Positions 8,031 through 24,104 of a stretch of DNA of 64,000 nucleotides are shown here, piece after piece. The DNA lies in the NCBI GenBank assembly GCA_040751795.1, contig JBFMHR010000003.1, positions 264,421 to 328,420 of the forward strand, given 5' to 3'. Every line of letters begins with the position of its first letter. Positions within the stretch are counted from its first letter, which is position 1. This DNA comes from Thermoplasmatota archaeon. Lineage in GTDB: Archaea; Thermoplasmatota; Thermoplasmata; UBA10834. Made by a program: the position numbers and the translations under genes. Under the pieces are notes generated by a model. That model did no database searches, was not told where the DNA came from, and worked only from the letters and a program-made list of their open reading frames with translations.

Positions 8031-8036
8031 CTCATC

Positions 8037-9050: not shown

Positions 9051-9051
9051 C

Positions 9052-9884: not shown

Positions 9885-12800
9885 CCCTTCACCTCCTGCT
9901 TCTTCGGCTGCTCAAGCGCAGCATCGATCATCGCCAGTATCTGCTCGTCCCTGAAGCCCTTCTGCGTCAGGGCCCCCGCAGGGCACGCGCCCACGCAGGC
10001 GCCGCAGCCCTTGCACAGCCCCACGTTGACGCTGACCATCTTCTTCTTCGGGTCGTCCTTGTGGGGCACGATGTCCAGCGCCTTGTACTCGCAGGTCGGG
10101 ACGCATATGCCGCAGCCGTCGCACAGGCTCTCGTCGACGCTCGCGACTATGCCCTCCGCCTCGAGGGTCGTCTTCGACAGGACGGTCATCGCCCTCGCGA
10201 CGGCCGCCAGGGCCTGGGATATGCTCTCGTCCACGAACTTCGGCCCGTGCGCCAGCCCCGCGAGGTACACGCCCTCGGTGGCGAAGTCGACCGGCCTCAG
10301 CTTCATGTGCGCCTCGAGGAAGAAGCCCTCCTTGGTCAAGGGCACCTTCAGCATCGGCGCGAGCTCCTCGGCGTCGTGCTGCGGCCTGGTGCCTGACGCG
10401 AGGACGAGGTAGTCGGGCCTGAGGACCAGCAGCTTGCCGGTGTCCTCCTCGGTCACCTTGACCTCCAGCTTCCCGCCCTTGTCCTCCACGACGGGCTTCT
10501 TCTCGTCGTCGAACCTGACGAACTTGACGCCCTTCTGCGAGGCCTCCTTGTAGTACTTCTCCCTGAAGCCGTAGGTCCTGATGTCCCTGAACAGGACGTA
10601 GACCTCCGCCTCCGGGTCCTTCTCCTTGACCTTCGTGGCGGCGGTCATCGTGCCCGTGCAGCACACGCGCGAGCAGTTCGGGTGGTCTCCCTCCCTGGAG
10701 CCGACGCACTGTATGAAGGCGTACGACTTCCCCTTGGCCTCGCCCTTCTTGAGCATCTCCTTGAACTCGAGCAGGGTCTTGACGTTCTTGCTCTTCCCGT
10801 AGAGGTACTCGCCCTCGGGCCTGTGCTCCTGCCCGCCGACCGCGAGTATGACAACGCCGTGCTCGACCTCCTTGCCGTCGGCGAGGGTGGTCTTGAAGTT
10901 CCCGACGTACCCCTCGATGTTCTTGACCTTGGCCCCGAGGTGCACGGTTATGTTCTTCTCCGCCCTGACCTCGGCCTCGAGCCTCTTCACGTGCTCCATC
11001 GGGTCGTCGCCGGAGGGCAGGTAGTGCAGCTTCCTCAGGTTGCCCCCGAGCTCCTTCTCCTTCTCCACGAGGTGGACCTTCACGCCCTGCCTGGCGAGCT
11101 CGAGCGCGGCCACCATGCCGCTCACGCCCCCGCCTATGACCAGGGCCTGCTGGTTCACCTTGATGGTGAGGTTCTCGAGCGGCTCCAGGAGCTTCGACTT
11201 GGCGATGGCCATCCTGACGAGGTCCTTGGCCTTCTTGGTGGCGGCCTTGGGCTCGTGCATGTGGATCCAGGAGCACTGGTCCCTGATGTTCGCCATCTCG
11301 AAGAGGTAGGCGTTGAGCCCGGCCTCCCTGATGGTGTTCTGGAACAGCGGCTCGTGGGTCCTGGGCGTGCAGCTCGCGACCACGACCCTGTTGAGCTTGT
11401 GCTCCTCGACCTTGCCCTTGATGCGCTCCTGCGCGTCCTGGGAGCAGGTGTAGAGGTTCTGCTCGGCGTAGACCACGCCCGGCAGCGTCTTGGCGTACTC
11501 CATGACCTCGGGCACATTGACGACGCCGCCGATGTTGATGCCGCAGTGGCACACGAACACGCCGATCCTCGCCTCCTGCCCGCCGACGTCCTTCTCCTTG
11601 GGGTACTCCTTCTTGGTGACGAGCGTGCCCCTGGCGGAGGCTATCTCCGTCCCGGCCCTGGCCGCGGCCCCGCTCGCCTCGGCGACCGTCATGGGTATGT
11701 CCTTGGGGGACGAGAACGCCCCGCTCACGAACACCCCCGGCCTCGAGGTCTCGACCGGGGTGAACACCCCGGTCTGGCAGAAGCCGTCGTCGTTGAGGCG
11801 GAACTTCATGACGCGGCTCAGCGCCTCCGCGTCGGAGGCAGGCGTCAGCCCGACTGCGAGCACCACGAGGTTGAAGACCTCCTCCTTCGGCTCGCCGTCC
11901 TCGGTGTACTTGAGTATGAGGTTCTTGGTCTTCGGGTCCTCGCTGACCGCGGCTATCCTCGACCGGACGAACCTGATCCCGTACTCGTCCTTGGCGCGGT
12001 TGTAGTACTCGTCGAACTGCTTCCCGAACGCCCTCAGGTCCATGTAGAATATCGAGGGCTTGATGTTGCCGCCGTGCTCCTTGGCTATGATGGCCTCCTT
12101 GACGGAGTACATGCAGCACACGCTGGAGCAGTACTCGTTCCCGCAGTGCTCGTCCCTCGAGCCCACGCACTGTATGAAGGCGATCTTCTCGGGTATGTCG
12201 CCGTCGGAGGGCCTCAGGACGGTGCCGAAGTACGGCCCGGTCGCGCTCAGCATCCTCTCGAACTCGATGCTCGTCACGACGTTCTGGTACACGCCGTACC
12301 CGTACTCGGGCTTCAGGCGCGCGTTGAACTCCTCGAAGCCGGGCGAGACTATGATCGACCCGACCTGGATCTCGAACACCCTCTCCTTCTGGTCGTACGC
12401 GACGGCCTTGGCCTTGCACTCCTCGGCGCATATGCCGCAGCCGATGCACCTCTCCGGGTCTATGGAGTAGACCAGCGGCACGGCCTGGGGGTAGCGCACG
12501 AATATGGCCTTGCGGACCTTCGTGCCCTCGTTGTACTCGTCCACGGTCTCGATGGGGCACTTCTGCGCGCAGCTGCCGCAGCCCGTGCACTTGGTCTCGT
12601 CGACCCTGAACGCCCTCTGCTTGACCGTGACGGTGAAGTTGCCCGCCTGCCCGTCCACTATGGCTATGTCCGCGTTCGTTATCAGCTGGATGTTGTGGTG
12701 CCTGCCCGTCGCGACGAGCTTGGGCGCCATGATGCACATGGCGCAGTCGTTGGTCGGGAAGGTCTTGTCCAGCTGGGCCATGACCCCGCCGATGCTCGGC

Positions 12801-12916
12801 TGCTTCTCCACCAGGTACACCTTGTACCCGGAGTCGGCCAGGTCCAGCGCGGACTGGAGGCCGGATATGCCCCCGCCCACGACCATGACGGCGCCGACCT
12901 TGTCAGTTGCGGCCAT
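9881..12916 (-). CDS. hdrA: Large heterodisulfide reductase subunit A: extra N-terminal FAD/thioredoxin-reductase-like module fused to a complete HdrA
   Basis: About 1011 aa. Residues 1-430 (VVGGGISGLQ, ferredoxin CxxCxxCxxxCP) are paralogous to the free 431-aa protein at 15582..16877. Residues ~450-1012 are a standard HdrA: RIGVFVCHCG Fe-S N-domain, second GGGVSG FAD motif, inserted and C-terminal 2x[4Fe-4S] domains. An alternative GTG start lies 3 nt upstream. Confidence 0.9.
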   Translation of the reverse strand: MAATDKVGAVMVVGGGISGLQSALDLADSGYKVYLVEKQPSIGGVMAQLDKTFPTNDCAMCIMAPKLVATGRHHNIQLITNADIAIVDGQAGNFTVTVKQRAFRVDETKCTGCGSCAQKCPIETVDEYNEGTKVRKAIFVRYPQAVPLVYSIDPERCIGCGICAEECKAKAVAYDQKERVFEIQVGSIIVSPGFEEFNARLKPEYGYGVYQNVVTSIEFERMLSATGPYFGTVLRPSDGDIPEKIAFIQCVGSRDEHCGNEYCSSVCCMYSVKEAIIAKEHGGNIKPSIFYMDLRAFGKQFDEYYNRAKDEYGIRFVRSRIAAVSEDPKTKNLILKYTEDGEPKEEVFNLVVLAVGLTPASDAEALSRVMKFRLNDDGFCQTGVFTPVETSRPGVFVSGAFSSPKDIPMTVAEASGAAARAGTEIASARGTLVTKKEYPKEKDVGGQEARIGVFVCHCGINIGGVVNVPEVMEYAKTLPGVVYAEQNLYTCSQDAQERIKGKVEEHKLNRVVVASCTPRTHEPLFQNTIREAGLNAYLFEMANIRDQCSWIHMHEPKAATKKAKDLVRMAIAKSKLLEPLENLTIKVNQQALVIGGGVSGMVAALELARQGVKVHLVEKEKELGGNLRKLHYLPSGDDPMEHVKRLEAEVRAEKNITVHLGAKVKNIEGYVGNFKTTLADGKEVEHGVVILAVGGQEHRPEGEYLYGKSKNVKTLLEFKEMLKKGEAKGKSYAFIQCVGSREGDHPNCSRVCCTGTMTAATKVKEKDPEAEVYVLFRDIRTYGFREKYYKEASQKGVKFVRFDDEKKPVVEDKGGKLEVKVTEEDTGKLLVLRPDYLVLASGTRPQHDAEELAPMLKVPLTKEGFFLEAHMKLRPVDFATEGVYLAGLAHGPKFVDESISQALAAVARAMTVLSKTTLEAEGIVASVDESLCDGCGICVPTCEYKALDIVPHKDDPKKKMVSVNVGLCKGCGACVGACPAGALTQKGFRDEQILAMIDAALEQPKKQEVKG

Positions 12917-13707
12917 CACTGCTCACCTCCGATGACGATGGTCTTGTATGTTGGAGTGAACCCCTCCGGGTGCTCCATCGCTATCATGTTCTTCTGCCTC
13001 AGGGCGACGATGTGCCTCAGGACCCTGTCCGTAGGGACGTCCATGATCTGCCCCAGCTCCTTGACGGACCTGGCCCTGCCCCTGGACAGCTCGAGGATGA
13101 GGCTCCTCTCGAACTCCTCCTCCGTCGAGGCGTCTATGATCTTGTCGAGCTCCGCCGGGTCCAGCTTGTTGCCGTAGGCGTTGCCCTTGTTGACCAGGTT
13201 CAGCTCCCTGCCGACGAGCGCCTTGAGCCTGAAGGTCTCCGACGCGCCGTCCGCTGCGGCCACCCTGTCGCCCAGCCTCTGGTCCTTCCTGACCTTGCTC
13301 GGGCCGAGCCTCCTTATGTTCTCGGTGAACTCGGTCACGACCTTGGAGAACTTCTCCCCCTCGGACGCGGAGACCCACTCCAGCCTGAGCCTCTCGGGCT
13401 CGAGCCCGCTCTCCTCGAGCAGGCGCTTCATCAGCCTCACGCGCTTCTCGGTGTAGTAGTTCCCGGAGATGTAGTGGCAGTCGCCTATGTGGCAGCCGCC
13501 CAGGAGCACGCCGTCCGCCCCGGCCCTGAATATGTCGAGGACGAGGTGGGGGCTGATCCTGGTCGAGCACATGACCCTCACGGCCCTTATGTTCGTGGGG
13601 TACTGGTACCTGCTGACCCCGCACAGGTCGGCGCCCGCGTACGAGCACCAGTTGCACAGGAACCCTATGATCTTCGGCTCGAACTCCGCCTTGGGTGCGT
13701 CGGCCAT
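12916..13707 (-). CDS. MvhD domain fused to C-terminal winged-helix-like domain X
   Basis: The N-terminal ~140 aa are MvhD (FLCNWCSYAGADL, GCHIGDCHY). The C-terminal ~115 aa are homologous to the free-standing ORF 9052..9435. Confidence 0.8.
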   Translation of the reverse strand: MADAPKAEFEPKIIGFLCNWCSYAGADLCGVSRYQYPTNIRAVRVMCSTRISPHLVLDIFRAGADGVLLGGCHIGDCHYISGNYYTEKRVRLMKRLLEESGLEPERLRLEWVSASEGEKFSKVVTEFTENIRRLGPSKVRKDQRLGDRVAAADGASETFRLKALVGRELNLVNKGNAYGNKLDPAELDKIIDASTEEEFERSLILELSRGRARSVKELGQIMDVPTDRVLRHIVALRQKNMIAMEHPEGFTPTYKTIVIGGEQ

Positions 13708-13710
13708 GGC

Positions 13711-15585
13711 TCACACCTCCTCCTGGAGCGCGGCCTTCGCCTCTGCGAGCAGCTGCGCGTCGGTGTAGTTGGTCATGGTTATCGCGCCCTCGGGGCAGGT
13801 CGCGCCGCAGCAGCCGCAGCCCTTGCACGCCGCCACGATGACCTCCGCCAGGCCCTTGTCGTTCTTCCTGAGCGCGCCGTACGGGCACACCTCTATGCAG
13901 GTTCCGCACCCGGTGCACCTGGTCTCGTCGACGACCGAGGTCAGCGCCTCGGCCTGGACGTAGCCCTTGGCCATCGGGATCGCGGCCCTCGAGGCCGCGG
14001 CCGAGCCCTGCGTGACCGCCTCGGTTATGTCCGCCGGGCCCTTGCAGGTCCCGGCGACGTATATGCCGTCGGTGGCGAAGTCGACCGGCCTCAGCTTCAC
14101 GTGCGCCTCCAGGAAGAAGCCCTCCTGGCCCAGCGGCACCTTGAGCATCTTGGACAGCTCGCCCGCGTCCGGCTGCGCCACGAGCGGGGTCGACAGGACG
14201 ACCATGTCGACGGGCATCGTCCTCTCGAGCTTCAGGGTCTCGTGGAAGTACGTGACCTTCAGCTGGTTGTCCTCCATGAAGACCTTGGGCAGGTGGTCGA
14301 GGGTGTACCTGTTGAACTTGACCCTCTTCTCCCTGGCCTTGTTGTAGGTGAGCTCGTGCTCCACGCCGTAGGCCATGACGTCCCTGTTGAACACGGTGAC
14401 CTCGATCTTCTCCGACGGCCCGAGCTTGACCTCCTCGGCCTCGCCCTCGGCCTCGCCGCGCCCGCGCCTCCTGCGCCTGCGCTCGAGGATCTCGTCGGTC
14501 GCCTTCTTCTCGACGGGGATCTTCTCGACGACGGTCCCGGCCTTCTCCATGACCCCGAGCATGTTCTCGTAGTTGTCCACGATGTTGATGGCGTTCTTGA
14601 TGGCGACGTTGCAGCAGATCCTGGAGCAGTAGGACATCTTCTGGCCCCTGGACCCGACGCACTGTATGAACGCCACGCTCTTGAGCTTCGGGAGGGTCTT
14701 CTTCTTGCACAGGATCTCGAACTCCGTCAGGGTGACGACGTTAGGGTACTGGTTGTAGCCGTACAGGCCCTCGGGGACGAACTCCAGCGCACCGGTGGCG
14801 ACGACTATCGTGCCGACCTTGAACTTCTTCCCCTCGCCCCCCTTGGGGGCGATGACGACCTCGTAGTTGCCTATGAAGCCGTCGATGCTCTTGACGGTCG
14901 AGTTCAGGTGCAGCGTGATGTTCTTGTGCCCCTTGACCTTGTCTATCAGGGGCTTTATGGTGTCCGTCGCGCCCTTCTCGGTGACGTAGAGGTTGTTCAG
15001 GAGCCTGACGAAGCCCCCGAGCTCCCCCTCCCTCTCGACGAGGTGCACGGGGAAGCCCATGTCGGCCAGCGAGGCCGCGGCGGTCATCCCGCTGACGCCG
15101 CCGCCAATGACCAGCCCGACCGGCTCGACGTCGACCTTCGCCTCCTCCTGGGGCTTTAGCAGCCTGGCCCTCGCGACGCCCATGCGGATCAGGTCCTTGG
15201 CCTTCTTCGAGGCGAGGTCCTTCTCCTTCATGTGCACCCACGAGCAGTGCTCCCTGATGTTCACGAACGTGAACAGGTACTTGTTGAGGCCGGCGCCCTC
15301 GCAGGTCGCCTGGAACAGGGGCGCGTGCGTCCTGGGCGTGCAGCTCGCCACTATGACCCTGTTCAGGTTGTGCTTCCTGATGGCCTCCCTGATGCTGCCG
15401 AGCCCGTCCTCCGCGCAGGTGTACATGTTCTGGGTCGCGTACACCACGTCGGGGAGCGTCTTCGCGTAGTCCGCCACGGTGGGGACGTCCACGAACCCGC
15501 CTATGTTGCTCCCGCAGGAGCAGACGAACACGCCTATCCTCGGCTTGTCGACCTCGTTGACCTTGTTCTCAGCCATGTCGCTCAT
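13711..15585 (-). CDS. hdrA: HdrA, complete-HdrA module (the C-half of a split large HdrA)
   Basis: Begins MSDMAENKVNEVDKPRIGVFVCSCG. The ATG overlaps the TGA stop of the upstream 431-aa gene (ATGA). Carries FAD-binding GGGVSG, an inserted ferredoxin and a C-terminal 2x[4Fe-4S] ferredoxin domain. Confidence 0.85.
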   Translation of the reverse strand: MSDMAENKVNEVDKPRIGVFVCSCGSNIGGFVDVPTVADYAKTLPDVVYATQNMYTCAEDGLGSIREAIRKHNLNRVIVASCTPRTHAPLFQATCEGAGLNKYLFTFVNIREHCSWVHMKEKDLASKKAKDLIRMGVARARLLKPQEEAKVDVEPVGLVIGGGVSGMTAAASLADMGFPVHLVEREGELGGFVRLLNNLYVTEKGATDTIKPLIDKVKGHKNITLHLNSTVKSIDGFIGNYEVVIAPKGGEGKKFKVGTIVVATGALEFVPEGLYGYNQYPNVVTLTEFEILCKKKTLPKLKSVAFIQCVGSRGQKMSYCSRICCNVAIKNAINIVDNYENMLGVMEKAGTVVEKIPVEKKATDEILERRRRRRGRGEAEGEAEEVKLGPSEKIEVTVFNRDVMAYGVEHELTYNKAREKRVKFNRYTLDHLPKVFMEDNQLKVTYFHETLKLERTMPVDMVVLSTPLVAQPDAGELSKMLKVPLGQEGFFLEAHVKLRPVDFATDGIYVAGTCKGPADITEAVTQGSAAASRAAIPMAKGYVQAEALTSVVDETRCTGCGTCIEVCPYGALRKNDKGLAEVIVAACKGCGCCGATCPEGAITMTNYTDAQLLAEAKAALQEEV

Positions 15586-16877
15586 CCCCCCGCCTGGGCC
15601 ATGGCCTCGACCGCCTTCGCGGCCGCGCTCGAGCCCTGGGCGACCGCCTCGGGTATGTCCGCCGGGCCGGCCGCGTACCCCGCGAGGTACACGCCGGGCT
15701 TGACGGTCCTGCCCGGGCCGAGGATCCTGTCCGCAGACTCCAGGAACCCGAACTCGTCGACCTTCAGCCCGAGTATCTTCGCCAGCTCGGCCGTCTCCTT
15801 CCTGGGCACCAGCGTGGTGGCCAGGACGACGAGGTCGAACTCCTCGGACTGCTGCCTGCCGCCCACGTCGTACACGACGACGGGGTTGTGTGTGTCCGGG
15901 TTCTCCTGGACCGTGGCGTCGGAGTTGATGTACCTGACGCCGTAGTCGCGCTTGGCCCTCTCGACGTACTCGTAGAAGCCCTTGGCGCAGGCCCTCATGT
16001 CCTTGTAGAATATGGTGGACTCGATGTCGTCGTAGTGCTCCCTCGCCAGCATCGACTCCTTGGTCGAGTGCATGCAGCACACGGCGCAGCAGTACGGGTG
16101 CCCGACCTGCGGGTTCCTCGAGCCGACGCACTGTATGAACGCCATCTTCTTCGGCCTCTCCTTGTCGGAGCGCCTCTGGATGTGGCCGTGGGTCGGGCCC
16201 GCGGCGTTGATCATCCTCTCGTACTCCATCGCCGTGAAGACGTTGGGGTACCGGCCGTAGCCGTACTCCGTGGACGGGGTCGGGTCCCAGACGTCGAAGC
16301 CGGTGGCGACTATGATCGCGGCGACCTCTATCTCCAGGACCTGGTCCTTCATCTCGTAGTTGATGGCGCCCCTCTTGCAGACCTTCATGCAGTTTCCGCA
16401 CTTGTCCTTGGTCAGCTTGAGGCAGTGCTCCTTGTCGATGGTCATGACCCTGGGGACGGCCTGCATGAACGGGATGTATATCGCCTTCCTCGTGGTGAGG
16501 CCCATCTCCCAGTCGTTGACGACCTTGCTCGGGCACTTCTCGAGGCACTCCCCGCAGCCGGTGCACTTGGTCTCGTCGACGTACCGGGCCTTCTTGAGCA
16601 CCTTCACCTTGAAGCTGCCGACGCTCCCCTCGACGCCGATCACCTCAGAGTAGGTGATCACATTGGTGTTCGGGTGGCTGAAGCAGTCGGCCATCTTGGG
16701 CGCCAGTATGCATATAGAGCAGTCGTTCGTAGGGAAGGTCTTGTCCAGCTGGGCCATCCTCCCACCGATGCTGGGGGTCTTCTCGACCAGATGGACGATC
16801 AGTCCCTTGTCCGCCAGGTCCAGCGACGCCTGTATCCCGGCGACTCCCCCTCCTATCACCATAACCGCCTTCTCCAT
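15582..16877 (-). CDS. HdrA-like FAD-dependent oxidoreductase module (the N-half of a split large HdrA)
   Basis: 431 aa: VIGGGVAGIQASLDLA, DKTFPTNDC, one ferredoxin CTGCGECLEKCP. Paralogous to residues 1-430 of both large HdrAs. Lacks the RIGVxVCHCG N-domain and the C-terminal ferredoxins. Confidence 0.85.
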   Translation of the reverse strand: MEKAVMVIGGGVAGIQASLDLADKGLIVHLVEKTPSIGGRMAQLDKTFPTNDCSICILAPKMADCFSHPNTNVITYSEVIGVEGSVGSFKVKVLKKARYVDETKCTGCGECLEKCPSKVVNDWEMGLTTRKAIYIPFMQAVPRVMTIDKEHCLKLTKDKCGNCMKVCKRGAINYEMKDQVLEIEVAAIIVATGFDVWDPTPSTEYGYGRYPNVFTAMEYERMINAAGPTHGHIQRRSDKERPKKMAFIQCVGSRNPQVGHPYCCAVCCMHSTKESMLAREHYDDIESTIFYKDMRACAKGFYEYVERAKRDYGVRYINSDATVQENPDTHNPVVVYDVGGRQQSEEFDLVVLATTLVPRKETAELAKILGLKVDEFGFLESADRILGPGRTVKPGVYLAGYAAGPADIPEAVAQGSSAAAKAVEAMAQAGG

Positions 16878-17085: not shown

Positions 17086-17529
17086 TCACTTGGCCGAAAG
17101 GACCTCCTTCGCCTCGGTGTCCTTCTGGATCTCCGTGACCTTGACCTTGAAGGGGGCCTTCTTCCTGCCTTGCATCCCCTCGGACGCGAACCTCTGGCAG
17201 TTCGGGTATGTGCAGGGGGTGCACTTCTTGTCCTTGCACGACAGCTCTATGAGCACGAGCCTGTCCCTGGTGTCCGCGGCCCCGGTGACCGGCTTCCTGA
17301 CCTCGAACATCTTGGTCATCCGCGTCTCGTAGGGCTTCTTCTTCGGCTCTATCCTGGCGAACCTCTGGCAGTTCGGGTAGGTGCACGGGTCGCACTTCTT
17401 GTCCTTGCACGACAGCTCGATCAGCAGGACCCTGTCGCCCTGCCCCTTCGCCTGGGCCGCCTCCTTGGCGTCCTTCTCCTTCTTCTCCGTCTTCGGTGTC
17501 ATCCTAACAGTCCTTCGCGTTTCATTCAA
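17086..17529 (-). CDS. Small basic Cys-rich protein with an internal tandem duplication (2 x C-x5-C-x2-C-x4-C)
   Basis: Contains LIELSCKDKKC(D/T)PCTYPNCQRFA twice, 57 aa apart. The underlying ~81-nt DNA segments at 17187..17267 and 17358..17438 are about 89% identical. Lys-rich composition in a GC-rich genome. Overlaps the stop of the upstream gene. Confidence 0.55.
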   Translation of the reverse strand: MNETRRTVRMTPKTEKKEKDAKEAAQAKGQGDRVLLIELSCKDKKCDPCTYPNCQRFARIEPKKKPYETRMTKMFEVRKPVTGAADTRDRLVLIELSCKDKKCTPCTYPNCQRFASEGMQGRKKAPFKVKVTEIQKDTEAKEVLSAK

Positions 17530-19087
17530 GCTGCTCAGCGATGGCGACGCTGAGGTCCTTGATCGGTATGTCGACCTGCTCCTTGGGCACCTGGGTCTTG
17601 TTCTCCTGGACGCAGGAGAGGTGTATGAGGCACTTGTAGCACCCCGTCACGAGGCACTCTGCCCCCGTCCTCTTGGCCTCCTTCAGCCTCTCGACCTGCA
17701 GCCTCCTGGAGGTCTCGTCGCAGGTGGCCCATGCGCTCACGCCGCAGCAGAGGGCCTTGTCCCGGACGTTCTCCATCTCCAGGATCTGCGTGCCCTTGGA
17801 GGCGGTCAGGGCGCTCCTGGGCTGGTCGTATATGCCCATGTGCCTGCCGAGCCTGCACGAGTCCTGGAAGGTGAGCTTCCGGGCGCTGTCCTTCAGCCTG
17901 AGCCTGCCCTCCTTGACCAGGTCGTCCACGAACTCCGAGATGTGGACCATCTCGAAGGGGTGGTCCCCGGCCAGCTCCTGGTAGTCCAGGTCGAACGTGC
18001 GCATGCACTCGGGGCACGAGAAGACGACCTTCTTGGCCCCCGAGGCCTTTATGACCTCGAGGTTCTTCTTCATCAGCTTCTGGAGCGCCGCCTCGTCCCC
18101 CGTCCAGTTGAGGTCGTGCCCGCAGCAGACCTCGTCGTTGCTGACGGCCGGGACAATGCCCGCCCTGTTCATAATCTTTACGACCGCCCGGGGTATGCCA
18201 GACAGGTCCAGCTTCCTCTCCTTGAATATCGCGTCGAAGTACGGCGCGCAGCCCGTGAAGAAGAAGACCTCGCCCTTGTCGGCTATCTTGAGTTCGGGGG
18301 TGACCCAGCTGAGCCTGTCCTGCTTGAAGCTCCCGTGGGCCATGATCCTCATCACGCCCTGCATGAGCCCGCCCTGGGAGCAGGCGGGGTCGTTCTCGAG
18401 GGCGACGGCCTCGCCCCTGAGGCCCCGTATGAACCCGGAGTAGTCGACCTTGTACGGGCACATGGAGTTGCACTGCTCGCAGGTGACGCAGGTCCATATG
18501 TCCTTGTCCTTAGAGAGGTTGCCCACCTGCCCCTCGGTCGCCCTCAGGACTATGGTCCTCGGGGCGAACTCGGTGTTGTACTTGGCGACGGGGCAGACGG
18601 TGGTGCACTTCCCGCACTCGACGCAGTCGAAGGCCCCCGTGTCCTCGATGAGCGCGTCTATGCGCTGCTTGAGGGTGTCGGGGTTCCTGGTGGCCCTCTT
18701 CACCTTGGGCATCGGGTTGGGGCCGAGCGCCCTGACCTGCTCGGTGAACTCCTTCATGGTCGCGGCGAACTTCTGGCCCTCCGAGGCGGAGATCCACTCC
18801 AGCCTCATCCGGTCCCTGCCCACGCCGAGCCTGTCGAGGACCTCCTTCACGGACTCCATCCGCTTCTCCGCCTCGACGTTCCCGGATATGTAGTGGCAGT
18901 CGCCAATGTGGCACCCGGCGACGAGCACTCCGTCCGCGCCGAGCTCGAGCGCCCTCACGATGAAGTAAGGCTCGACCCTGCCGGAGCACATCACCCTTAT
19001 GACGCGCGCGTTGGGCGGGTACTGCATCCTGCCCACGCCCGCGAGGTCCGCGCCCGCGTACGAGCACCAGTTGCAGCAGAAGGCCAC
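17522..19087 (-). CDS. MvhD-domain / HdrD-like (HdrC + HdrB) fusion protein; start codon uncertain (GTG at 19087 or CTG at 19118 overlapping the hdrA stop)
   Basis: N-terminal FEPNIVAFCCNWCSYAGADLAG...GCHIGDCHY (MvhD). Two CxxCxxCxxxCP motifs (HdrC-like). C-terminal Cys-rich CCG-type domains (CCGHDL..., ALCCGVSAWATC..., TGCYKC) as in HdrB/HdrD. No ATG or TTG lies between the hdrA stop and the conserved FCC motif. Confidence 0.75.
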   Translation of the reverse strand: MAFCCNWCSYAGADLAGVGRMQYPPNARVIRVMCSGRVEPYFIVRALELGADGVLVAGCHIGDCHYISGNVEAEKRMESVKEVLDRLGVGRDRMRLEWISASEGQKFAATMKEFTEQVRALGPNPMPKVKRATRNPDTLKQRIDALIEDTGAFDCVECGKCTTVCPVAKYNTEFAPRTIVLRATEGQVGNLSKDKDIWTCVTCEQCNSMCPYKVDYSGFIRGLRGEAVALENDPACSQGGLMQGVMRIMAHGSFKQDRLSWVTPELKIADKGEVFFFTGCAPYFDAIFKERKLDLSGIPRAVVKIMNRAGIVPAVSNDEVCCGHDLNWTGDEAALQKLMKKNLEVIKASGAKKVVFSCPECMRTFDLDYQELAGDHPFEMVHISEFVDDLVKEGRLRLKDSARKLTFQDSCRLGRHMGIYDQPRSALTASKGTQILEMENVRDKALCCGVSAWATCDETSRRLQVERLKEAKRTGAECLVTGCYKCLIHLSCVQENKTQVPKEQVDIPIKDLSVAIAEQLE

Positions 19088-19113
19088 TATGTTCGGCTCG
19101 AAACGCTCCTCGG

Positions 19114-22100
19114 TCAGGCGCCCACCTCCTCGTCCTTCCCCTCGGGCGCGAGGAGCGCCTCGAGCATGGTCATGATCTGGTCGGTCTTGAAGTGCTTCGG
19201 CCTTATCGCCCTGGAGCAGCACGCGACCGCGCAGGAGCCGCAGCCCTTGCACAGAGCCTCGTTGATCTTCGACTTGAACACCCCTGGCGAGACCTCCTCG
19301 ACCCTGGGCGCCCCGTACTCGCACAGCTCCTCGCACCTGCCGCATGCGATGCACTTCTCGGGGTCTACCTCCGAGACGACGCCCTCCGCCTCGATGAACG
19401 GCTTGGACAGGACCGTGTTGACCCTGGCGGCCGCCGCAAGGGCCTGGGATATGCTCTCGTCTATGAGCCTCGGGGAGTGCGCCAGGCCGCAGAGGAATAT
19501 GCCGTCGGTGGCGAAGTCGACCGGCCTCAGCTTCATGTGCGCCTCGAGGAAGAAGCCCTCCCTCGTCAGCGGGACCTTGAGCATCTGGGCCAGGTCCTTG
19601 TTGTCAGGGTTGGGCCTGACGGCCGCGTTGAGGACCAGGTAGTCGGGCCTGATGGTCACGGTCTGCTCTATGAACTGCTCGTCCACCTCGACGGTGAGGT
19701 GGCCCCCGTGCTCGCTCACCCTCGGGGGCGACGAGGGGTCGTACCTCAGGAACACCACGCCGAGCCTCGCGGCCTCGTTGTAGTTCTCCTCCCTGAAGCC
19801 GAAGGTCCTGATGTCCCTGTAGAGGACGTACACGGCCGTCCCCGGGTGGTCCTGCTTGATCTTCATCGCGTTGGCCATGGCCGTGGAGCAGCAGATCCTG
19901 GAGCAGTTGGGGTGCTCCTCGTCCCTCGAGCCGACGCACTGGATTATGACCACGCTCTTCGCCTTGAAGTCCTTGCCCGAGACCATCTCCCCGAGGTCGG
20001 TCTGCCTGATGACCTTCGGGTCCTTCCCGAAAAGGTACTGCTCGGGCTCGTGCTCGACGGCCCCCGTCGCCACGACTATGGCGCCGTGCTGGACCTTCTC
20101 CCCGCTCCCGAGGGTGGTCTCGAAGTTGCCGATGTAGCCCTTGACCTCGGCCACGGTGTCCTCCAGGTGGACCTTGATCCTCGGGTCCCCCATGACCTCC
20201 TTCTCCAGCTTCCTGAAGGTCTCCTGGGGGTCGACCCCTATGAGGGTGCGGTGTATCCGCCTGAGGTGGCCGCCGAGGTGCTTGCTCTTCTCCACGACGT
20301 GCACGTCGAAGCCGCTCCTGGCGATCTCCAGGGCGGCGGTCATGCCGCTCAGGCCGCCCCCAATGACGAGCGCGGACTGGGTGACGGGTATCCTGGGCTG
20401 CGGGAGCGCCTCGAGCGTGGCCGCCTTGGCGACGGCCATGCGGACCAGGTCCTTGGCCTTCTCCGTCGCGCGCTCCGGCTCCCTCCTGTGCACCCACGAG
20501 CACTGGTCCCTGATGTTGGCCATCTCGAACAGGTACTTGTTCAGGCCCGCCTCCTTCACAGTGTTCTGGAAGAGCGGCTCGTGGGTCCTGGGGGTGCAGC
20601 TCGCGACCACGACCCTGTTGAGGTCGTGCTTCTCGATGGTCTCCCTGATCTTCTTCTGGGTGTCCTGCGAGCAGGTGTAGAGGTTCTGCTCAGCCACGAT
20701 CACGTGCTGGAGAGTCTTGGCGTACTCCATGACCTCCGGCACGTCCACGACCGAGCCGATGTTGATGCCGCAGTGGCAGACGAAGACGCCGATCCTCGGC
20801 TCCTTGCCCGCGACCTCCTTCTCCTTGGGGTACTCCTTCTTTGTGACGAGTGTCCCCCTGCTCTCCGAGAGGAGCGCCGCCGCCTTGCCGGCGGCGCCGC
20901 TGGCCTGCGCGATCGAGTCGGGGATGTCCTTGGGCCCGGAGAACGCGCCGCACACGTAGACGCCGGGGACGGATGTCTCAACCGGGGACAGCTCGTCCGT
21001 CTCGCAGAAGCCGAACTTGTTGAGGTCGACGCCCAGCACCTTGGCGAGCGCGCCCGTCGCCTCCGGCGGCCTCGCGCCCGCCGAGAGCACCACGAGGTCG
21101 AACGCCTCCTCGGCGATGTCGGCCCCCTCGAGGTAGCTGAGGATGACGTTGCCCGTGGCAGGGTCCTCCTGCAGCTTGGATATCCTGTTGTTCCTGAGGA
21201 CGCGGACGCCGTACTCGTTCTCCGCGCGCATCAGGTATTCCTCGAACTCCTTGCCGAAGGCCCGCGTGTCCATGAAGAAGATGGCCGTGTCGAGGCCCGG
21301 GACGTGCTCCTTGCCGATGACGGCCTGCTTGAGGGCGGCCATGCAGCAGTAGGAGGAGCAGTAGGTGTTCCCCGTCTGCGCGTCCCTCGAGCCGACGCAC
21401 TGGACGAAGGCGATCTTCTTCGGGACGTCGCCGTCCGAGGGGCGGATCACATGCCCCTCCGTCGGGCCCGACGCGCTCAGCATCCTCTCGAACTCGATGT
21501 TGGTCAGGACGTTGGCGTACACCCCGTGCCCGTACTCCGCCTTCTTCGACGCCTCGAAGACGTCGTAGCCGGGGCTGAGGATGATCGAGCCCACCTCGAC
21601 GACCTCCTCCTTGTCCGGCTTCTCGGAGTAGCTGATGGCCTTCGCCTCGCAGAATTTCTCGCAGATGCCGCAGCCGATGCAGAGGCCCCTGTCTATGGTA
21701 TAGACCAGGGGCACGGCCTGGGGGAAGGGCACGTAGATGGCCTTGGCCGGCGCGAGCTCCCTGTCGAAGGCGTTCAGCCCCTCGACCGGGCAGTGCTCCG
21801 CGCAGACGCCGCAGCCCGTGCACTTCTCCTCGATGATGTACCTGGAGCGCCTGGTGAGGGTGACCTTGAAGTCGCCGGCCTTCCCGTCGACCTTCTTGAG
21901 CTCCGCGTTGGTGAGCATGGTGATGTTCTCGTGCCTGCCCGTGGCTACGAGCTTGGGGGACACGATGCACATGGCGCAGTCGTTGGTCGGGAAGGTCTTG
22001 TCCAGCTGGGCCATGGTGCCGCCTATGCTGAGGCCGGCCTCGAGTATGTACACCTTGAAGCCGGAGTCGGCGAGGTCCAGGGCCGCCTGTATGCCGGCGG

Positions 22101-22149
22101 GGCCGCCGCCCACGACGAGGACGGCGCCGACCTTCTTGTGCTCTGCCAT
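19114..22149 (-). CDS. hdrA: Large heterodisulfide reductase subunit A (second copy of the tandem-module architecture)
   Basis: 1011 aa. Same arrangement as 9881..12916, about 60-70% identical to it by eye. Two GxGxxG FAD motifs, RIGVFVCHCG, several 4Fe-4S motifs. Confidence 0.9.
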   Translation of the reverse strand: MAEHKKVGAVLVVGGGPAGIQAALDLADSGFKVYILEAGLSIGGTMAQLDKTFPTNDCAMCIVSPKLVATGRHENITMLTNAELKKVDGKAGDFKVTLTRRSRYIIEEKCTGCGVCAEHCPVEGLNAFDRELAPAKAIYVPFPQAVPLVYTIDRGLCIGCGICEKFCEAKAISYSEKPDKEEVVEVGSIILSPGYDVFEASKKAEYGHGVYANVLTNIEFERMLSASGPTEGHVIRPSDGDVPKKIAFVQCVGSRDAQTGNTYCSSYCCMAALKQAVIGKEHVPGLDTAIFFMDTRAFGKEFEEYLMRAENEYGVRVLRNNRISKLQEDPATGNVILSYLEGADIAEEAFDLVVLSAGARPPEATGALAKVLGVDLNKFGFCETDELSPVETSVPGVYVCGAFSGPKDIPDSIAQASGAAGKAAALLSESRGTLVTKKEYPKEKEVAGKEPRIGVFVCHCGINIGSVVDVPEVMEYAKTLQHVIVAEQNLYTCSQDTQKKIRETIEKHDLNRVVVASCTPRTHEPLFQNTVKEAGLNKYLFEMANIRDQCSWVHRREPERATEKAKDLVRMAVAKAATLEALPQPRIPVTQSALVIGGGLSGMTAALEIARSGFDVHVVEKSKHLGGHLRRIHRTLIGVDPQETFRKLEKEVMGDPRIKVHLEDTVAEVKGYIGNFETTLGSGEKVQHGAIVVATGAVEHEPEQYLFGKDPKVIRQTDLGEMVSGKDFKAKSVVIIQCVGSRDEEHPNCSRICCSTAMANAMKIKQDHPGTAVYVLYRDIRTFGFREENYNEAARLGVVFLRYDPSSPPRVSEHGGHLTVEVDEQFIEQTVTIRPDYLVLNAAVRPNPDNKDLAQMLKVPLTREGFFLEAHMKLRPVDFATDGIFLCGLAHSPRLIDESISQALAAAARVNTVLSKPFIEAEGVVSEVDPEKCIACGRCEELCEYGAPRVEEVSPGVFKSKINEALCKGCGSCAVACCSRAIRPKHFKTDQIMTMLEALLAPEGKDEEVGA

Positions 22150-22150
22150 G

Positions 22151-22609
22151 TCAGACCCCCTCCCCGTAGATCGGGCCGAGCCTCTGGAGCTCGGCGACCA
22201 TCTCCTTCACGACGTTCGCGAACTTCTGCCCCTCGGAGCCCGCTATCCACTCGATCCTGAACCTCTGCGCCTCTATCCCCGCGTCCTCGAGGAACGATGA
22301 CAGGAAGTCGCCGCGCATGGCGGCCTTCTCGTTGCCGTTGATGTAGTGGCAGTCCGCCGGGTGGCACCCGGCGACTATGACGCCGTCCGCCCCGAGCTCG
22401 AAGGCCTTGAGCACGAAGGCAGGGTCCACCCTCCCGGAGCACATGACCCTGACTATCCTCACGTTCGGGGGGTACTGTATCCTGGTCGTACCGGCGAGGT
22501 CGGCCCCCGCGTACGAGCACCAGTTGCAGCAGAAGGCCACGATCCTCGGCTCGTACCCGGCCTGCTCCTCGGCCGCCTCGTGCTTCTTCGCGTGCGTGGT
22601 CACGGTCAC
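22151..22609 (-). CDS. mvhD: MvhD-type [2Fe-2S] subunit (standalone, GTG start overlapping the hdrB stop as GTGA)
   Basis: EPRIVAFCCNWCSYAGADLAG, GCHPADCHY. 153 aa. Confidence 0.8.
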   Translation of the reverse strand: MTVTTHAKKHEAAEEQAGYEPRIVAFCCNWCSYAGADLAGTTRIQYPPNVRIVRVMCSGRVDPAFVLKAFELGADGVIVAGCHPADCHYINGNEKAAMRGDFLSSFLEDAGIEAQRFRIEWIAGSEGQKFANVVKEMVAELQRLGPIYGEGV

Positions 22610-23523
22610 GACCCCCTGAGCTTCCGCAGGAGCGAGTGGGCCGACACGTGGTGCGTGTCGAAGCCCAGCGAGATCGGGTCTATGCCCATGGCGAGCGCCT
22701 GGAACTGGGAGACGTGCATCACGGGGATGCCGTCCTTGGAGAAGGCCTTCTGGGCGTTGTCGAACTGGAGGAGGCAGAACGGGCAGCCCGTGACGACGCA
22801 GTCCGCGCCCACGGCCCCGATCTTCCTGCACTTGTCCTCGGTGAGCGAGTTGGCCAGGTCCACGACGTGCGACCTCACGCCGCCGCCCGCGCCGCAGCAG
22901 TCGAGCTTGTCGTCGTAGTCCACGCTCGTCGCGCCGCACGCCTCGACTATGTTGTCCAGGAGGACGGGGTTGTTGGGGTCGTCTATGGTCCTGCTCTCGG
23001 TCGGCCTGAGGTAGTGGCAGCCGTAGTGGACCGCGACCCTGATGTTCTTCAGCGGCCGCTTCACCTTCGCCTGGATGGCCTCGATCCCGATGTCCTTGGC
23101 CATGAGCTCGATGTAGTGCCGGACGGTGACGGGCTCGAAGACCCTCCTCTTCCCCTCGCTCTTCTTCGGCACGCCGGTGTACTTCTTGCCGACCTGCGCC
23201 AGGACCCTGTTCACCTTGCCCATGCTCTTCGGGTCCTTGAGGTACTCGGTGGCCTTCATGAGGGACGTCAGGCAGCCGTTGCAGACCGTCAGGATGTCCC
23301 TCCTCTCGTCCTGCGCCAGGACGAGGTTCCTCGCCGCGAGGAGCAGCCAGGTCTCCTTGTCGGTGGAGTAGAATATCCCCGGGACGGGGCAGCACGAGAA
23401 CTCGGGTATGTCCTTGACGTCGAGGTCGAAGCCGTCCTTGCCGCAGACCCATCTCACGGCGTACTCGATGCCCGGGTACCTGTTGGGTATGACGCACCCG
23501 AAGAAGTAGGCGTAGGACGTCAC
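22606..23523 (-). CDS. hdrB: Heterodisulfide reductase subunit B
   Basis: Two CCG domains (CCPVPG..., CCGAGGG...CPFC). GTG start preceded by GGAGGTG. 305 aa. Confidence 0.9.
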   Translation of the reverse strand: MTSYAYFFGCVIPNRYPGIEYAVRWVCGKDGFDLDVKDIPEFSCCPVPGIFYSTDKETWLLLAARNLVLAQDERRDILTVCNGCLTSLMKATEYLKDPKSMGKVNRVLAQVGKKYTGVPKKSEGKRRVFEPVTVRHYIELMAKDIGIEAIQAKVKRPLKNIRVAVHYGCHYLRPTESRTIDDPNNPVLLDNIVEACGATSVDYDDKLDCCGAGGGVRSHVVDLANSLTEDKCRKIGAVGADCVVTGCPFCLLQFDNAQKAFSKDGIPVMHVSQFQALAMGIDPISLGFDTHHVSAHSLLRKLRGS

Positions 23524-24104
23524 GGGTTCACCTCCGACTCGATGCCGATGAGCTTGTCGTACTTGGAGGCGTGGACGAGGACGCCGATCTCCCTGAGGAC
23601 GTTCTTGAAGCCCGGGCTGAACGTGTGGATCTCGCCGAGGCCCAGCTCCTTCCTTATCTTGTTGATCTCCTCGTCGGGCTTGACGCTCTGGCCGTACCTG
23701 ACCAGGTTGGTGGCCGCGACCTTTATGAACGGCGGTATGACGCCCTCGCGGACGGCGATGTGCCTCAGCGCGATCATGACCTCGGCCGGGTTGATGTCGG
23801 CGGGGCAGTGCTCGTAGCACCTGTAGCACGTGGCGCAGACCCACCTGGTGCCGAGCGTGTAGTTCTTCAGCCCGAACTGGCAGAACTTCATGATGCTCCT
23901 GGTCTTGTAGTCGATCTTGAGGCTGATGGGGCACACGCCGGTGCAGTTGCCGCACTGGAGGCAGGTCATGACGTCCTTGCCGCTGTACTTCTTGATCTCC
24001 TTGGCGAAGCCGGGCTCCAGCTGGGACTCGTCGATGACCTTCTCCTCGACCAGCTCCTCCTTGAGCCCGCTGATGAAAGTCTTCTCGACCTCTCCCATGC
24101 TCAC
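23520..24104 (-). CDS. hdrC: Heterodisulfide reductase subunit C
   Basis: Two [4Fe-4S] motifs: CLQCGNCTGVCP and CATCYRCYEHCP. 194 aa. Confidence 0.9.
   Translation of the reverse strand: MSMGEVEKTFISGLKEELVEEKVIDESQLEPGFAKEIKKYSGKDVMTCLQCGNCTGVCPISLKIDYKTRSIMKFCQFGLKNYTLGTRWVCATCYRCYEHCPADINPAEVMIALRHIAVREGVIPPFIKVAATNLVRYGQSVKPDEEINKIRKELGLGEIHTFSPGFKNVLREIGVLVHASKYDKLIGIESEVNP

Follow-up and report, generated by a model that had tools for sequence, protein, structure and literature searches.

The mvhD-hdrD fusion gene at 17522..19117 (-) of the window, that is, the whole 64,000-nucleotide stretch of DNA analysed, has no canonical start codon at its conserved N-terminus, and this is a true anomaly of the window gene. 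The orthologous start position is occupied by CTG, the first base of which is also the synonymous third position of the last Ala codon of the upstream hdrA. In the explanation that we hold to be probable, though well short of certain, a real A/G-to-C substitution, synonymous in hdrA, altered the start codon, and translation would still begin at CUG by Shine-Dalgarno (SD)-assisted termination-reinitiation, probably less efficiently. The CTG would then be a one-base oddity that probably still allows translation, in a gene that is an ordinary member of a widespread MvhD-HdrD family.

Domain organization and distribution of the fusion protein

The gene comprises 531 codons counted from the CTG, and its homologues, of 530-533 amino acids, start with M/V-(T/S)-x-x-x-FEP at the aligned position. 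The first-pass annotation had placed it at 17522-19118; the left end was retained, while the right end is 19117. Profile searches showed a full-length match to PF02662 (188.3 bits, cut-off 22.3; residues 10-132 on profile positions 1-123 of 123), which defines an N-terminal MvhD/FlpD domain (18722..19090, -) with a putative [2Fe-2S] site that includes Cys 14, 15, 18, 44, 69, and 74. Among 32 homologues, C15, C18, C44, C69, and C74 are invariant, as is P8, and F6 and I10 are nearly so. This domain is followed by an HdrC-like ferredoxin segment (residues 165-221; 18455..18625, -), recognized by Pfam Fer4_17/Fer4_8 and HdrC matches and containing two CxxCxxCxxxCP motifs found by regular expression (residues 165-176 and 210-221), all eight cysteines of which are invariant in the 32 homologues. 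The same type of search revealed two complete C-Xn-CCG-Xm-CxxC motifs with five cysteines each, located at residues 290-371 (C290 ... C331 C332 G ... C368xxC371; 18005..18250, -) and 421-496 (C421 ... C457 C458 G ... C493xxC496; 17630..17857, -). Pfam CCG matched in two stretches (1e-22), the best at residues 416-500, where an HdrB fold match was also found. The earlier domain reading, an MvhD domain with two ferredoxin motifs and two CCG domains, was therefore borne out by profile and motif checks, and all Cys ligands are present in both CCG domains. No NCBIfam equivalog scored above its cut-off for the fusion protein (best, TfrB with 123 versus 385 bits and LdhH with 120 versus 800), and the best NCBIfam match of the MvhD part was the C-terminus of HdrA2.

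Over 100 database clusters, the majority of them from Thermoplasmata metagenome-assembled genomes (MAGs), have the same architecture at 530-550 amino acids. FlpD, Fer4, and CCG are present in all of the best 120 clusters (56-90% identity), which carry routine names such as "hydrogenase iron-sulfur subunit" and "heterodisulfide reductase subunit D"; judged by these matches, the MvhD-HdrD fusion itself is not new. In homologues of 73-90% identity, 530-533 amino acids long, the first residue aligns with the window CTG. With dN/dS about 0.1, purifying selection on the family is strong, and losing the gene would therefore not be expected to be neutral.

Gene neighbourhood

Genomic context analyses revealed that the fusion gene lies directly after a large type II hdrA, a class described previously (PMC12054007), within an mvh/hdr cluster of roughly 20 kb that has hyp maturation genes on its upstream side. 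This hdrA (19114..22149, -) encodes 1011 amino acids with two fused HdrA modules, as indicated by its ORF and by Pfam and NCBIfam HdrA matches, and is identical to MEW5748281.1. On the same strand, hdrC (23520-24104), hdrB (22606-23523), and mvhD (22151-22609) are linked by GTGA overlaps (22151..24104). A gene for a conserved small protein of 138 amino acids with two CX4CX2CX4C repeats (17086..17502, -) starts 19 nt downstream of the fusion gene, and follows it also in L161, L162, and L164-L187. The rest of the supercluster (6516..16877, -) consists of a split hdrA with an ATGA overlap (15582-16877 and 13711-15585), an mvhD-like gene of 263 amino acids (12916-13707), a second type II hdrA (9881-12919), a further mvhD (9432-9884), orf127 (9052-9435), mvhG (8037-9050), and mvhA (6516-8030). 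Seven further ATGA or GTGA junctions were found in the same cluster.

The start site at the hdrA junction

On the minus strand, hdrA ends with ...GAG GAG GTG GGC GCC TGA, with the TGA at 19116-19114, and the frame of the fusion gene reads CGC CTG ACC GAG GAG CGT TTC GAG CCG AAC ATA GTG... (R L T E E R F E P N I V A F C C). The CTG occupies 19117-19115, not 19118 as first annotated, and overlaps the stop codon in a 4-nt CTGA junction (19114..19117, -). An SD-like GGAGGTG (19123..19129, -) lies 5 nt upstream of the CTG; the motif also precedes many genes of the cluster, and the arrangement GGAGGTG + 5 nt + CTG is the same as that used by other cluster genes. Direct reading of the sequence confirmed that the stretch from the hdrA stop to FEPNIVAFCC lacks ATG, GTG, and TTG. 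The canonical codons nearest to the CTG are a GTG at +10 codons and a GTG at -35 codons. The GTG at 19087 and the CTG had been named as the only options, which overlooked two further GTGs in the same frame within hdrA (19222 and 19354). Starts at these two codons would lengthen the protein by 35 or 79 Arg/Gly-rich residues, an extension absent from every homologue.

Such an absence is rare: in 192 of 197 MvhD N-termini (fetched loci plus the window), ATG, GTG, or TTG is found at most 30 codons upstream. The window gene is among the remaining five, one of which is merely cut by a contig end. No called protein of the fusion gene, in versions of 610, 566, 531, or 521 amino acids, was found in a collection of 15 billion proteins, which does contain the hdrA from the same NCBI record. 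Apparently, the depositor's annotation accepted no start for this gene.

If the C is real, ribosomes might instead scan 27 nt past the hdrA stop and begin at the GTG at 19087-19085 (V11; -), giving a 521-residue protein without the first 10 residues. This is the first canonical codon downstream, as noted earlier, and its use would keep all cysteines, the first being residue 14. The cost to conserved N-terminal residues that the first-pass annotation anticipated is nevertheless evident: the product would lack P8, F6, and I10, the first invariant and the other two nearly so, and the start would fall inside the predicted strand beta1 (residues 10-15). In addition, the nearest SD-like sequence, GAGGAG, ends 18 nt upstream, which is too far, and reinitiation coupling requires overlaps or very short distances (PMC10666635). 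The codon-11 GTG is a synonymous variant that is also present in the normally starting relatives L001, L002, L081, and L165, and is thus not a compensating feature. L162, a lineage that shares the CTG, has GTC at this codon, and a start at its next ATG (M31) would cost it Cys 14, 15, and 18. Taken with these data, a start at this GTG appears quite improbable.

The junction in related lineages

Comparison of the junction showed ATGA, GTGA, or TTGA at exactly the orthologous position in 17 related lineages, with the 4-nt overlap of the hdrA stop. Of 19 lineages, nine have A immediately before TGA, seven have G, one has T, and two have C. The TGA and the GAGG core of the SD are invariant in a 10-sequence junction alignment; a single base, C where they have A, G, or T, sets the window apart from its relatives, and the window SD is intact. 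The nearest relative, L164, is 96.5% identical to the window at the DNA level over 8.2 kb (284 mismatches in 8,244 positions) and has an ATGA junction, the 45 nt upstream being identical; the window C is therefore one of many real strain differences. The second C was found in L162, where the junction is CTGA (...GGAGGTGgggacCTGA...) and the ORF is intact with 533 codons. Its sister L163, at least 90% identical, has GTGA, and L162 and the window are on separate branches of a neighbour-joining tree, which places the CTG codon as having arisen independently in the two lineages.

These comparisons bear on the possibility, raised in the first-pass annotation, of a local sequence error or frameshift. 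It is in our judgement unlikely that the C is a base-call or consensus error of the MAG and that position 19117 is truly A (as in L164) or G within an ordinary ATGA or GTGA start. The C is present in one assembly only, from a metagenome-assembled genome, ATGA stands between identical flanks in the nearest relative, and hdrA is broken (932 + 62 amino acids) in L177, an assembly of this clade, so that errors or lesions do occur in such MAGs. Against this, the same C occupies the same position in an unrelated contig of another lineage (L162), and the 284 differences from L164 imply that, at any given site, a real substitution is far more to be expected than a consensus error. Moreover, the assemblies L178-L183, obtained independently from several samples for a single related lineage, agree at the start site, which thus shows no sign of being error-prone, and the 64-kb window has long ORFs covering about 90% of its bases with no obvious broken genes in a crude ORF and codon-position GC scan. 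Sequence error is the less likely reading of the C, and a frameshift or indel is not needed, as frames and overlap are those of the relatives.

The related possibility that the gene is continuous with hdrA did not hold, since the frames differ, hdrA ends in TGA, and no slippery heptamer of the form X XXY YYZ is present at the junction (G GGC GCC TGA). A single polypeptide, made by programmed -1 frameshifting or hidden by an indel error in a true HdrA-MvhD-HdrD fusion, has some precedent in the well-known HdrA-MvhD fusions (PMC12054007, PMC11237513) and in the distant L095 (52% identity), where HdrA runs in frame into MvhD-HdrD. Yet all 18 other close lineages keep both frames and the NTGA overlap with the downstream gene starting there, and the difference from L164 is a substitution and not an indel; we give this explanation almost no weight.

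Both CTG alleles are terminal-branch singletons and the closest relative of each is canonical, a pattern that would also be expected of a base-call error or of a very recent, mildly deleterious mutation.

Selection and base composition at the start site

Purifying selection continues on the fusion gene in both CTG lineages, with no relaxed constraint. The window branch carries 23 synonymous and 6 nonsynonymous changes compared to 20 and 5 in its sister L164, and the L162 branch 29.5 and 6.5 compared to 35 and 7 in L163; the maximum neutral share of the branch is about 9% for the window and about 5% for L162, in parsimony-based tests with few outgroups and low power. Background Ala codon use is GCC 51%, GCG 45%, and GCA 2.5%, and this strong GC3 pressure drives the third position of the last hdrA Ala codon toward C or G. 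At the start site, A is strongly enriched and C is depleted but present, although the lineages are not independent, and CTG is about 5-fold rarer than background GCC use. A depleted yet present C is as expected of a weak but usable start codon.

The 5-fold depletion would also fit a real but very recent start loss that silenced the gene, leaving a nascent pseudogene or a transient deleterious allele tolerated through paralogous MvhD, HdrB, and HdrC modules. The terminal, singleton position of both CTG alleles, the presence in the cluster of four MvhD domains and of hdrB and hdrC as genes of their own, and the lack of an accepted protein call for the fusion gene in the database point the same way. 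Silencing is nonetheless not likely: neither CTG branch has a nonsynonymous excess, a stop, or an indel, and the mutation would have to have arisen independently on both, within roughly the final 9% of the window branch and the final 5% of the L162 branch. The strong purifying selection on the family and the intact SD also count against silencing.

A model for translation of the fusion gene

Among the options first proposed, tight translational coupling or reinitiation with a non-standard start is the best fit to the comparative data. In the favoured model, a ribosome terminating hdrA at UGA would be held by the conserved GGAGGUG SD 5 nt upstream and would reinitiate with initiator tRNA at the near-cognate CUG that overlaps the stop. 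The resulting protein would begin Met-Thr-Glu-Glu-Arg-Phe-Glu-Pro..., at a yield probably below that from AUG or GUG. As to function, the MvhD [2Fe-2S] domain may link the HdrA flavoprotein electrically with the fused HdrC/HdrB-like module, and this module would act on some thiol/disulfide substrate. Gene pairs with a -4 overlap are translated by termination-reinitiation in archaea (PMC6728339, PMC10666635), and near-cognate codons make up about 30% of putative alternative initiation sites in Ribo-seq of Haloferax volcanii (PMC7261190). Counting against a CUG start, a review of archaeal initiation gives AUG, GUG, and UUG only (PMC7531240), and efficiency is low in bacterial reporter data, CUG initiating at 1-2% of AUG in E. 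coli (bioRxiv 10.1101/063800).

Comparison with known systems

Residues 5-136 of the fusion protein are about 60% identical to the solved MvhD chains of MvhAGD-HdrABC (5ODC, 7BKB, 8RVU), and its model superposes on 5odc_D and 8rvu_F with TM 0.82-0.87 (60-62% identity). As in native MvhD, few residues precede the (F/W)EP motif. Here, however, MvhD is the N-terminal domain of a 531-residue protein and not a free subunit of 140 residues, and its gene follows a type II hdrA instead of mvhG/mvhA. The remainder resembles HdrD-type proteins (HdrD of HdrDE, TfrB, LutA/LdhH, and mycobacterial EtfD), which likewise have two CxxCxxCxxxCP motifs followed by two complete CCG motifs; fold matches include HdrB (TM 0.64-0.67), LutA (0.76), and EtfD as the top match. 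It differs from them by the additional MvhD domain and by scoring below every NCBIfam equivalog cut-off, and no hdrE-like membrane partner was seen among the scanned cluster genes.

In HdrA2 and type Ia HdrA, which carry a C-terminal MvhD, this domain is also covalently joined to another Hdr subunit, whereas here the partner is HdrD and not HdrA; all three are in one frame only in the distant L095. Gene clusters of type II HdrA are reported to include HdrD (PMC12054007, PMC9012536, PMC11237513), and the upstream gene in the window is likewise a type II (double) HdrA.

Regarding translation, the co-directional window pair, with its NTGA overlap at 19117-19114 and the SD GGAGGTG at 19129-19123 inside hdrA with a 5-nt spacer, resembles the archaeal and bacterial -4 overlap pairs of Huber et al. 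(2019, 2023), which share the 4-nt stop/start overlap, the SD within the upstream gene, and presumed membership of the products in the same complex. The difference is that the overlapping start here is CTG, while termination-reinitiation at -4 overlaps is described in the publications consulted for ATGA and GTGA only (PMC6728339, PMC13488343). CTG is occasionally annotated as a start, and its mismatch to the initiator anticodon is at the first position only (bioRxiv 10.1101/063800). The same mismatch would apply here as when bacteria initiate at a near-cognate CUG (translation table 11, E. coli reporters), except that the host is an archaeon and the context is one of reinitiation and not of de novo initiation.

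The Start Site of mvhD-hdrD

The type II hdrA gene (19114-22149, minus strand; 1011 codons) ends in ...GAG GAG GTG GGC GCC TGA, the TGA lying at 19116-19114, and one base back from this stop a second frame reads CTG ACC GAG GAG CGT TTC GAG CCG AAC ATA GTG GCC TTC TGC TGC, encoding L T E E R F E P N I V A F C C. This is the mvhD-hdrD frame, open for 531 codons from the CTG at 19117-19115 to the TGA at 17524-17522 (minus strand). In the window sequence, its stretch from the hdrA stop to FEPNIVAFCC contains no ATG, GTG or TTG: the nearest canonical codon 3' of the CTG is the GTG at 19087-19085 (V11 of the fusion protein, counted from the CTG), and the nearest in-frame ones on the 5' side are GTGs at 19222 and 19354, far within hdrA. 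The start-codon gap described by the first-pass annotation was therefore borne out, although its placement of the CTG at 19118 is one base off. A Shine-Dalgarno (SD) motif, GGAGGUG (19129-19123, minus strand), lies 5 nt upstream of the start.

The two upstream GTGs were rejected as starts: they would overlap hdrA by 109 (19222) and 241 nt (19354) and add an Arg/Gly-rich sequence absent from homologues. The one longer homologue seen (P0037, 545 aa) corresponds to locus L085, where GTG occupies the orthologous NTGA site (hdrA TGA stop overlapping a downstream NTG start by 4 nt), so its extension is a gene-caller choice. Reading the UGA as selenocysteine was also discarded, as the sequence gives HdrA only nine more residues before a TAG and leaves the frame still wrong for mvhD-hdrD. 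Rfam and tRNA scans gave no match in the window. Exact look-ups of the 610-, 566-, 531- and 521-aa versions of the fusion protein in the protein collection were all empty and so did not yield the depositor's start call; the hdrA product, NCBI MEW5748281.1, is present there, in a record without gene position. What replaces a canonical start is thus one C, the first base of an NTGA overlap start that is conserved in all other respects.

The Junction in Related Lineages

Homologues at 73-90% identity are 530-533 aa long and carry an M/V-(T/S)-x-x-x-F-E-P N-terminus at the residue aligned to the window CTG. DNA comparison revealed an SD core GAGG, a short spacer and NTGA, whose TGA ends hdrA and whose NTG begins the downstream gene, in 19/19 related lineages. 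N is A in nine (loci L002, L003, L005, L081, L083, L084, L161, L164, and L177), G in seven (L082, L085, L163, L165, the L166 group, L176, and the L178 group), T in one (L001) and C in two (the window and L162); the base is at the same time the synonymous third position of the last Ala codon of hdrA.

Neither an indel nor a frame change was found at the window junction relative to these relatives. A -1 frameshift or hidden indel, by which the gene would be fused with hdrA, was thus rejected, since the frame is unchanged with one base differing, the junction lacks a slippery heptamer, and in every close relative hdrA and the fusion gene remain separate. A fused arrangement is seen in a distant relative, 52% identical (L095; JABAOH010139124.1, around 600-700), where HdrA runs in frame without a stop into MvhD-HdrD (...NAIEGTIAGEEFEPSILAFCC...), a would-be three-way HdrA-MvhD-HdrD fusion. 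Among the options offered by the first-pass annotation, those of a frameshift, an indel or a gene continuous with hdrA accordingly fell away, while coupling or reinitiation with a non-standard start became the best-supported one.

A scan of Thermoplasmata loci for NTGA gave 14 ATGA, 11 GTGA, 1 TTGA and 5 CTGA. Two of the five CTGA are the hdrA/mvhD-hdrD junctions of the window and L162, one, in L005, is artefactual and stems from an N-run, and the other two, in the window (TGA at 3562, plus strand; 33521, minus strand), are followed by an ATG after 3 or 10 codons; the scan gave no clean CTG start beyond the window and L162. The junction between hdrB and stand-alone mvhD is GTGA in the window and L001 and CTGA in L081, with a GTG two codons later, and in L002 (about 480-575) it reads TAG-t-CTG, followed by 30 codons without ATG, GTG or TTG; from their sequences, L002 and L081 are possible further CTG starts in the clade. 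MvhD genes of two Promethearchaeota (Asgard) loci, L050 (about 5857-5905) and L143 (about 1910-1967), also have a short upstream open stretch without ATG, GTG or TTG. In the former, an ATT precedes the IxxFCC strand by 16 codons, at the place taken by ATG in relatives, and could possibly be the start.

Authenticity of the CTG

Over 8.2 kb, the sister of the window, L164, from an independent NCBI assembly, differs at 284 positions (96.5% identity); its ATGA junction is preceded by 45 nt identical to the window. The C is thus probably one of many real strain differences, and at this divergence true substitutions should far outnumber consensus errors per site. The same boundary is CTGA also in an unrelated contig, L162 (2392-2440; JGI 3300009509, Ga0123573_10003920), which reads ...GAG AAG GAG GAG GTG GGG ACC TGA CGG AGA AGC CCT TCG AGC CC... 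and whose ORF, counted from the CTG, is intact over 533 codons; its gene call starts at M31, giving 503 aa without Cys 14, 15 and 18. The sister of L162, L163 (at least 90% identical), has GTGA. In a neighbour-joining tree, the window clusters with L161 (ATG) and L001 (TTG) and L162 lies on a separate deep branch, indicating that the C arose twice. One related lineage was assembled independently from several samples (L178-L183), and these assemblies have the same base at the junction, and the site is therefore not visibly error-prone. A base-call error at the CTG is accordingly considered improbable. In L177 (1-889; GCA_974433865.1, CDDBJM010000035.1), type II hdrA is divided between two calls, of 932 and 62 aa, which suggests a frameshift or assembly error just upstream of its ATGA junction.

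Translation could alternatively, though improbably, start at the GTG at 19087. This codon occurs at position 11 also in relatives with normal starts and is absent from L162, it has no SD at usable distance, and it lies inside predicted strand beta1 (residues 10-15); a start there would cost the protein P8, which is invariant, as well as F6 and I10, which are nearly so.

Selection on the Gene and Its Start

An outgroup served to polarise the changes in mvhD-hdrD, in parsimony-based tests of low power. These gave 23 synonymous and 6 nonsynonymous changes on the window branch (CTG) and 20 and 5 on that of its sister L164 (ATG), and likewise 29.5 and 6.5 for L162 (CTG) and 35 and 7 for its sister L163 (GTG). 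Full relaxation predicts about 81 nonsynonymous changes on the window branch and about 105 on the L162 branch, so the neutral share of each branch is at most about 9% and 5%, respectively (95% confidence). Unrelaxed constraint on the CTG branches fits a gene that would still be expressed, and it also fits a very recent mutation, or an error, in both CTG cases; we consider recent silencing of mvhD-hdrD unlikely.

Ala codons in the hdr and mvh genes of the window are GCC (51%), GCG (45%), GCA (2.5%) and GCT (1.7%), and the junction base over the 19 lineages is A in 47%, G in 37%, T in 5% and C in 11%. Compared with Ala codon use, A is strongly enriched at this site and C about 5-fold depleted yet present, with binomial values indicative only because the lineages are phylogenetically related. 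We read this as C being continually produced by GC pressure while selection favours A or G, so that CTG would be disfavoured but tolerated.

Proposed Mechanism and Implications

The best-supported reading is that a real, weak CUG start would be used via translational coupling. A ribosome ending hdrA at the UGA would be retained by the GGAGGUG motif and reinitiate with initiator tRNA on the overlapping CUG, and the product would begin (M)TEERFEPNIVAF... Gene pairs with a -4 overlap undergo termination-reinitiation in Haloferax volcanii and E. coli, often SD-assisted from within the upstream gene (PMC6728339, PMC10666635). CUG has 1-2% of AUG activity in E. coli reporters (bioRxiv 10.1101/063800), and harringtonine Ribo-seq in H. 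volcanii placed about 30% of putative alternative initiation sites at near-cognate codons (PMC7261190); a review of archaeal initiation gives AUG, GUG and UUG only as start codons (PMC7531240).

More generally, and tentatively, -4-overlap reinitiation in GC-rich Thermoplasmata may loosen start-codon selection enough for CUG to serve as a weak start, a proposal that we hold at somewhat short of an even chance. In that case, the opening base of such a start would behave nearly as a synonymous site of the upstream gene, in line with all four bases occurring among close relatives, frequent A/G flips and C recurrent under GC3 pressure, and gene callers and annotation pipelines would systematically mis-call or drop CUG-start genes. 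Callers limited to ATG, GTG and TTG shorten or lose mvhD-hdrD when its start is CTG; since L162 is called from M31 and the collection has no protein call for the window copy, the subunit could be wrongly scored as missing or broken in metabolic reconstructions. Two independent CTGA junctions with SD intact and constraint unrelaxed make a natural experiment on near-cognate starts in archaeal termination-reinitiation. The main value of the CTG junction is this small test case together with the annotation caveat; the protein itself adds little, being one more member of an abundant family.

Genomic Context

The gene belongs to a co-directional cluster of about 24 kb (6516-30544, minus strand), with hypF, hypA and hypD followed by hdrA (719 aa), hdrC, hdrB, mvhD, type II hdrA and mvhD-hdrD, then by a small Cys-repeat protein gene, a split hdrA (431 + 624 aa), an mvhD-like gene (263 aa), a second type II hdrA (1012 aa), mvhD, orf127, mvhG and mvhA. 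It thus holds five HdrA-type units (719 aa, 1011 aa, split 431 + 624 aa, 1012 aa) and four MvhD domains besides hdrB, hdrC, mvhG and mvhA. Junctions are mostly 4-nt overlaps, GTGA or ATGA, and GGAGGTG-like SD motifs precede many starts. Double "type II" HdrA, HdrA-MvhD fusions and HdrD genes were previously described in such clusters (PMC12054007, PMC9012536, PMC11237513). One HdrA arrangement occurs in two forms, fused (1011 and 1012 aa) and split via an ATGA overlap (15582-16877 / 13711-15585). The MvhD-like protein (12916-13707, minus strand) has an FlpD domain at residues 13-135 and a C-terminal extension of about 125 residues without family match, and orf127 (9052-9435, minus strand; 127 aa), between mvhD and mvhG with an ATGA overlap, has no Pfam or NCBIfam match.

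Directly 3' of mvhD-hdrD lies a conserved small protein gene (17086-17502, minus strand; 125-150 aa), found in the same place in L161 (2305-2679), L162 (4037-4444) and L164 (3827-4243); few close relatives were among the matches listed from genome and metagenome scans, and a search with this small protein provided the most informative ones instead. The protein has two repeats of (V/L)L(L/V)IELSCKDKKCxPCTYPNCQRF (CX4CX2CX4C) and no match in Pfam or NCBIfam. Its 209 database relatives are nearly all unnamed or "hypothetical", with a few flagged PF04060, and the protein is a candidate for an as yet undescribed subunit of the Hdr complex encoded here, one that would bind Fe-S or metal. The tight coupling of mvhD-hdrD to type II hdrA, and the presence of this conserved gene immediately 3' of it, suggest that type II HdrA, MvhD-HdrD and the Cys-repeat protein form one complex.

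The MvhD-HdrD Protein and Its Relatives

A search of a collection of 5.8 billion protein clusters with the fusion protein gave 4564 proteins at E <= 1e-10. The best 120 all have the FlpD + Fer4 + CCG architecture, are 56-90% identical and nearly all full length, and come mainly from Thermoplasmata and Methanomassiliicoccales MAGs under names such as "hydrogenase iron-sulfur subunit", "heterodisulfide reductase subunit D" and [quoted passage not shown]; among the matches listed, bacterial MAGs hold full-length relatives at 41-43% identity. The fusion is nothing unusual within its family, which is large and already annotated and adjoins type II HdrA in Thermoplasmata hydrogenase/heterodisulfide-reductase clusters.

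In Pfam, residues 10-132 match FlpD/MvhD over its full length (188 bits) and residues 164-225 a ferredoxin dicluster, and there are two CCG stretches. Both CxxCxxCxxxCP motifs (residues 165-176 and 210-221) and both C-Xn-CCG-Xm-CxxC motifs (residues 290-371 and 421-496) are complete, with cysteines invariant in an alignment of 32 homologues. The earlier reading of an MvhD domain joined to two ferredoxin motifs and CCG domains was confirmed by these results, including the CCG Cys ligands of the C-terminal part, whose loss had been named as grounds against it. "HdrD-like" is a structural label only, as the protein attains no NCBIfam equivalog cut-off; the best NCBIfam scores of the C-terminal part are TfrB and LdhH.

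The MvhD domain is proposed, by analogy to solved Mvh-Hdr complexes, to dock on HdrA and carry electrons between the flavoprotein and the fused HdrC/HdrB-like module, whose two CCG domains would have a thiol/disulfide couple as substrate. Solved MvhD chains (e.g., 5ODC_D) share about 60% identity with the MvhD part. An AlphaFold2 model of the fusion protein (mean pLDDT 84.5, pTM 0.87) resembles solved MvhD with TM 0.82-0.87, solved HdrB with TM 0.64-0.67 and solved LutA with TM 0.76, and its top structural match is mycobacterial EtfD.
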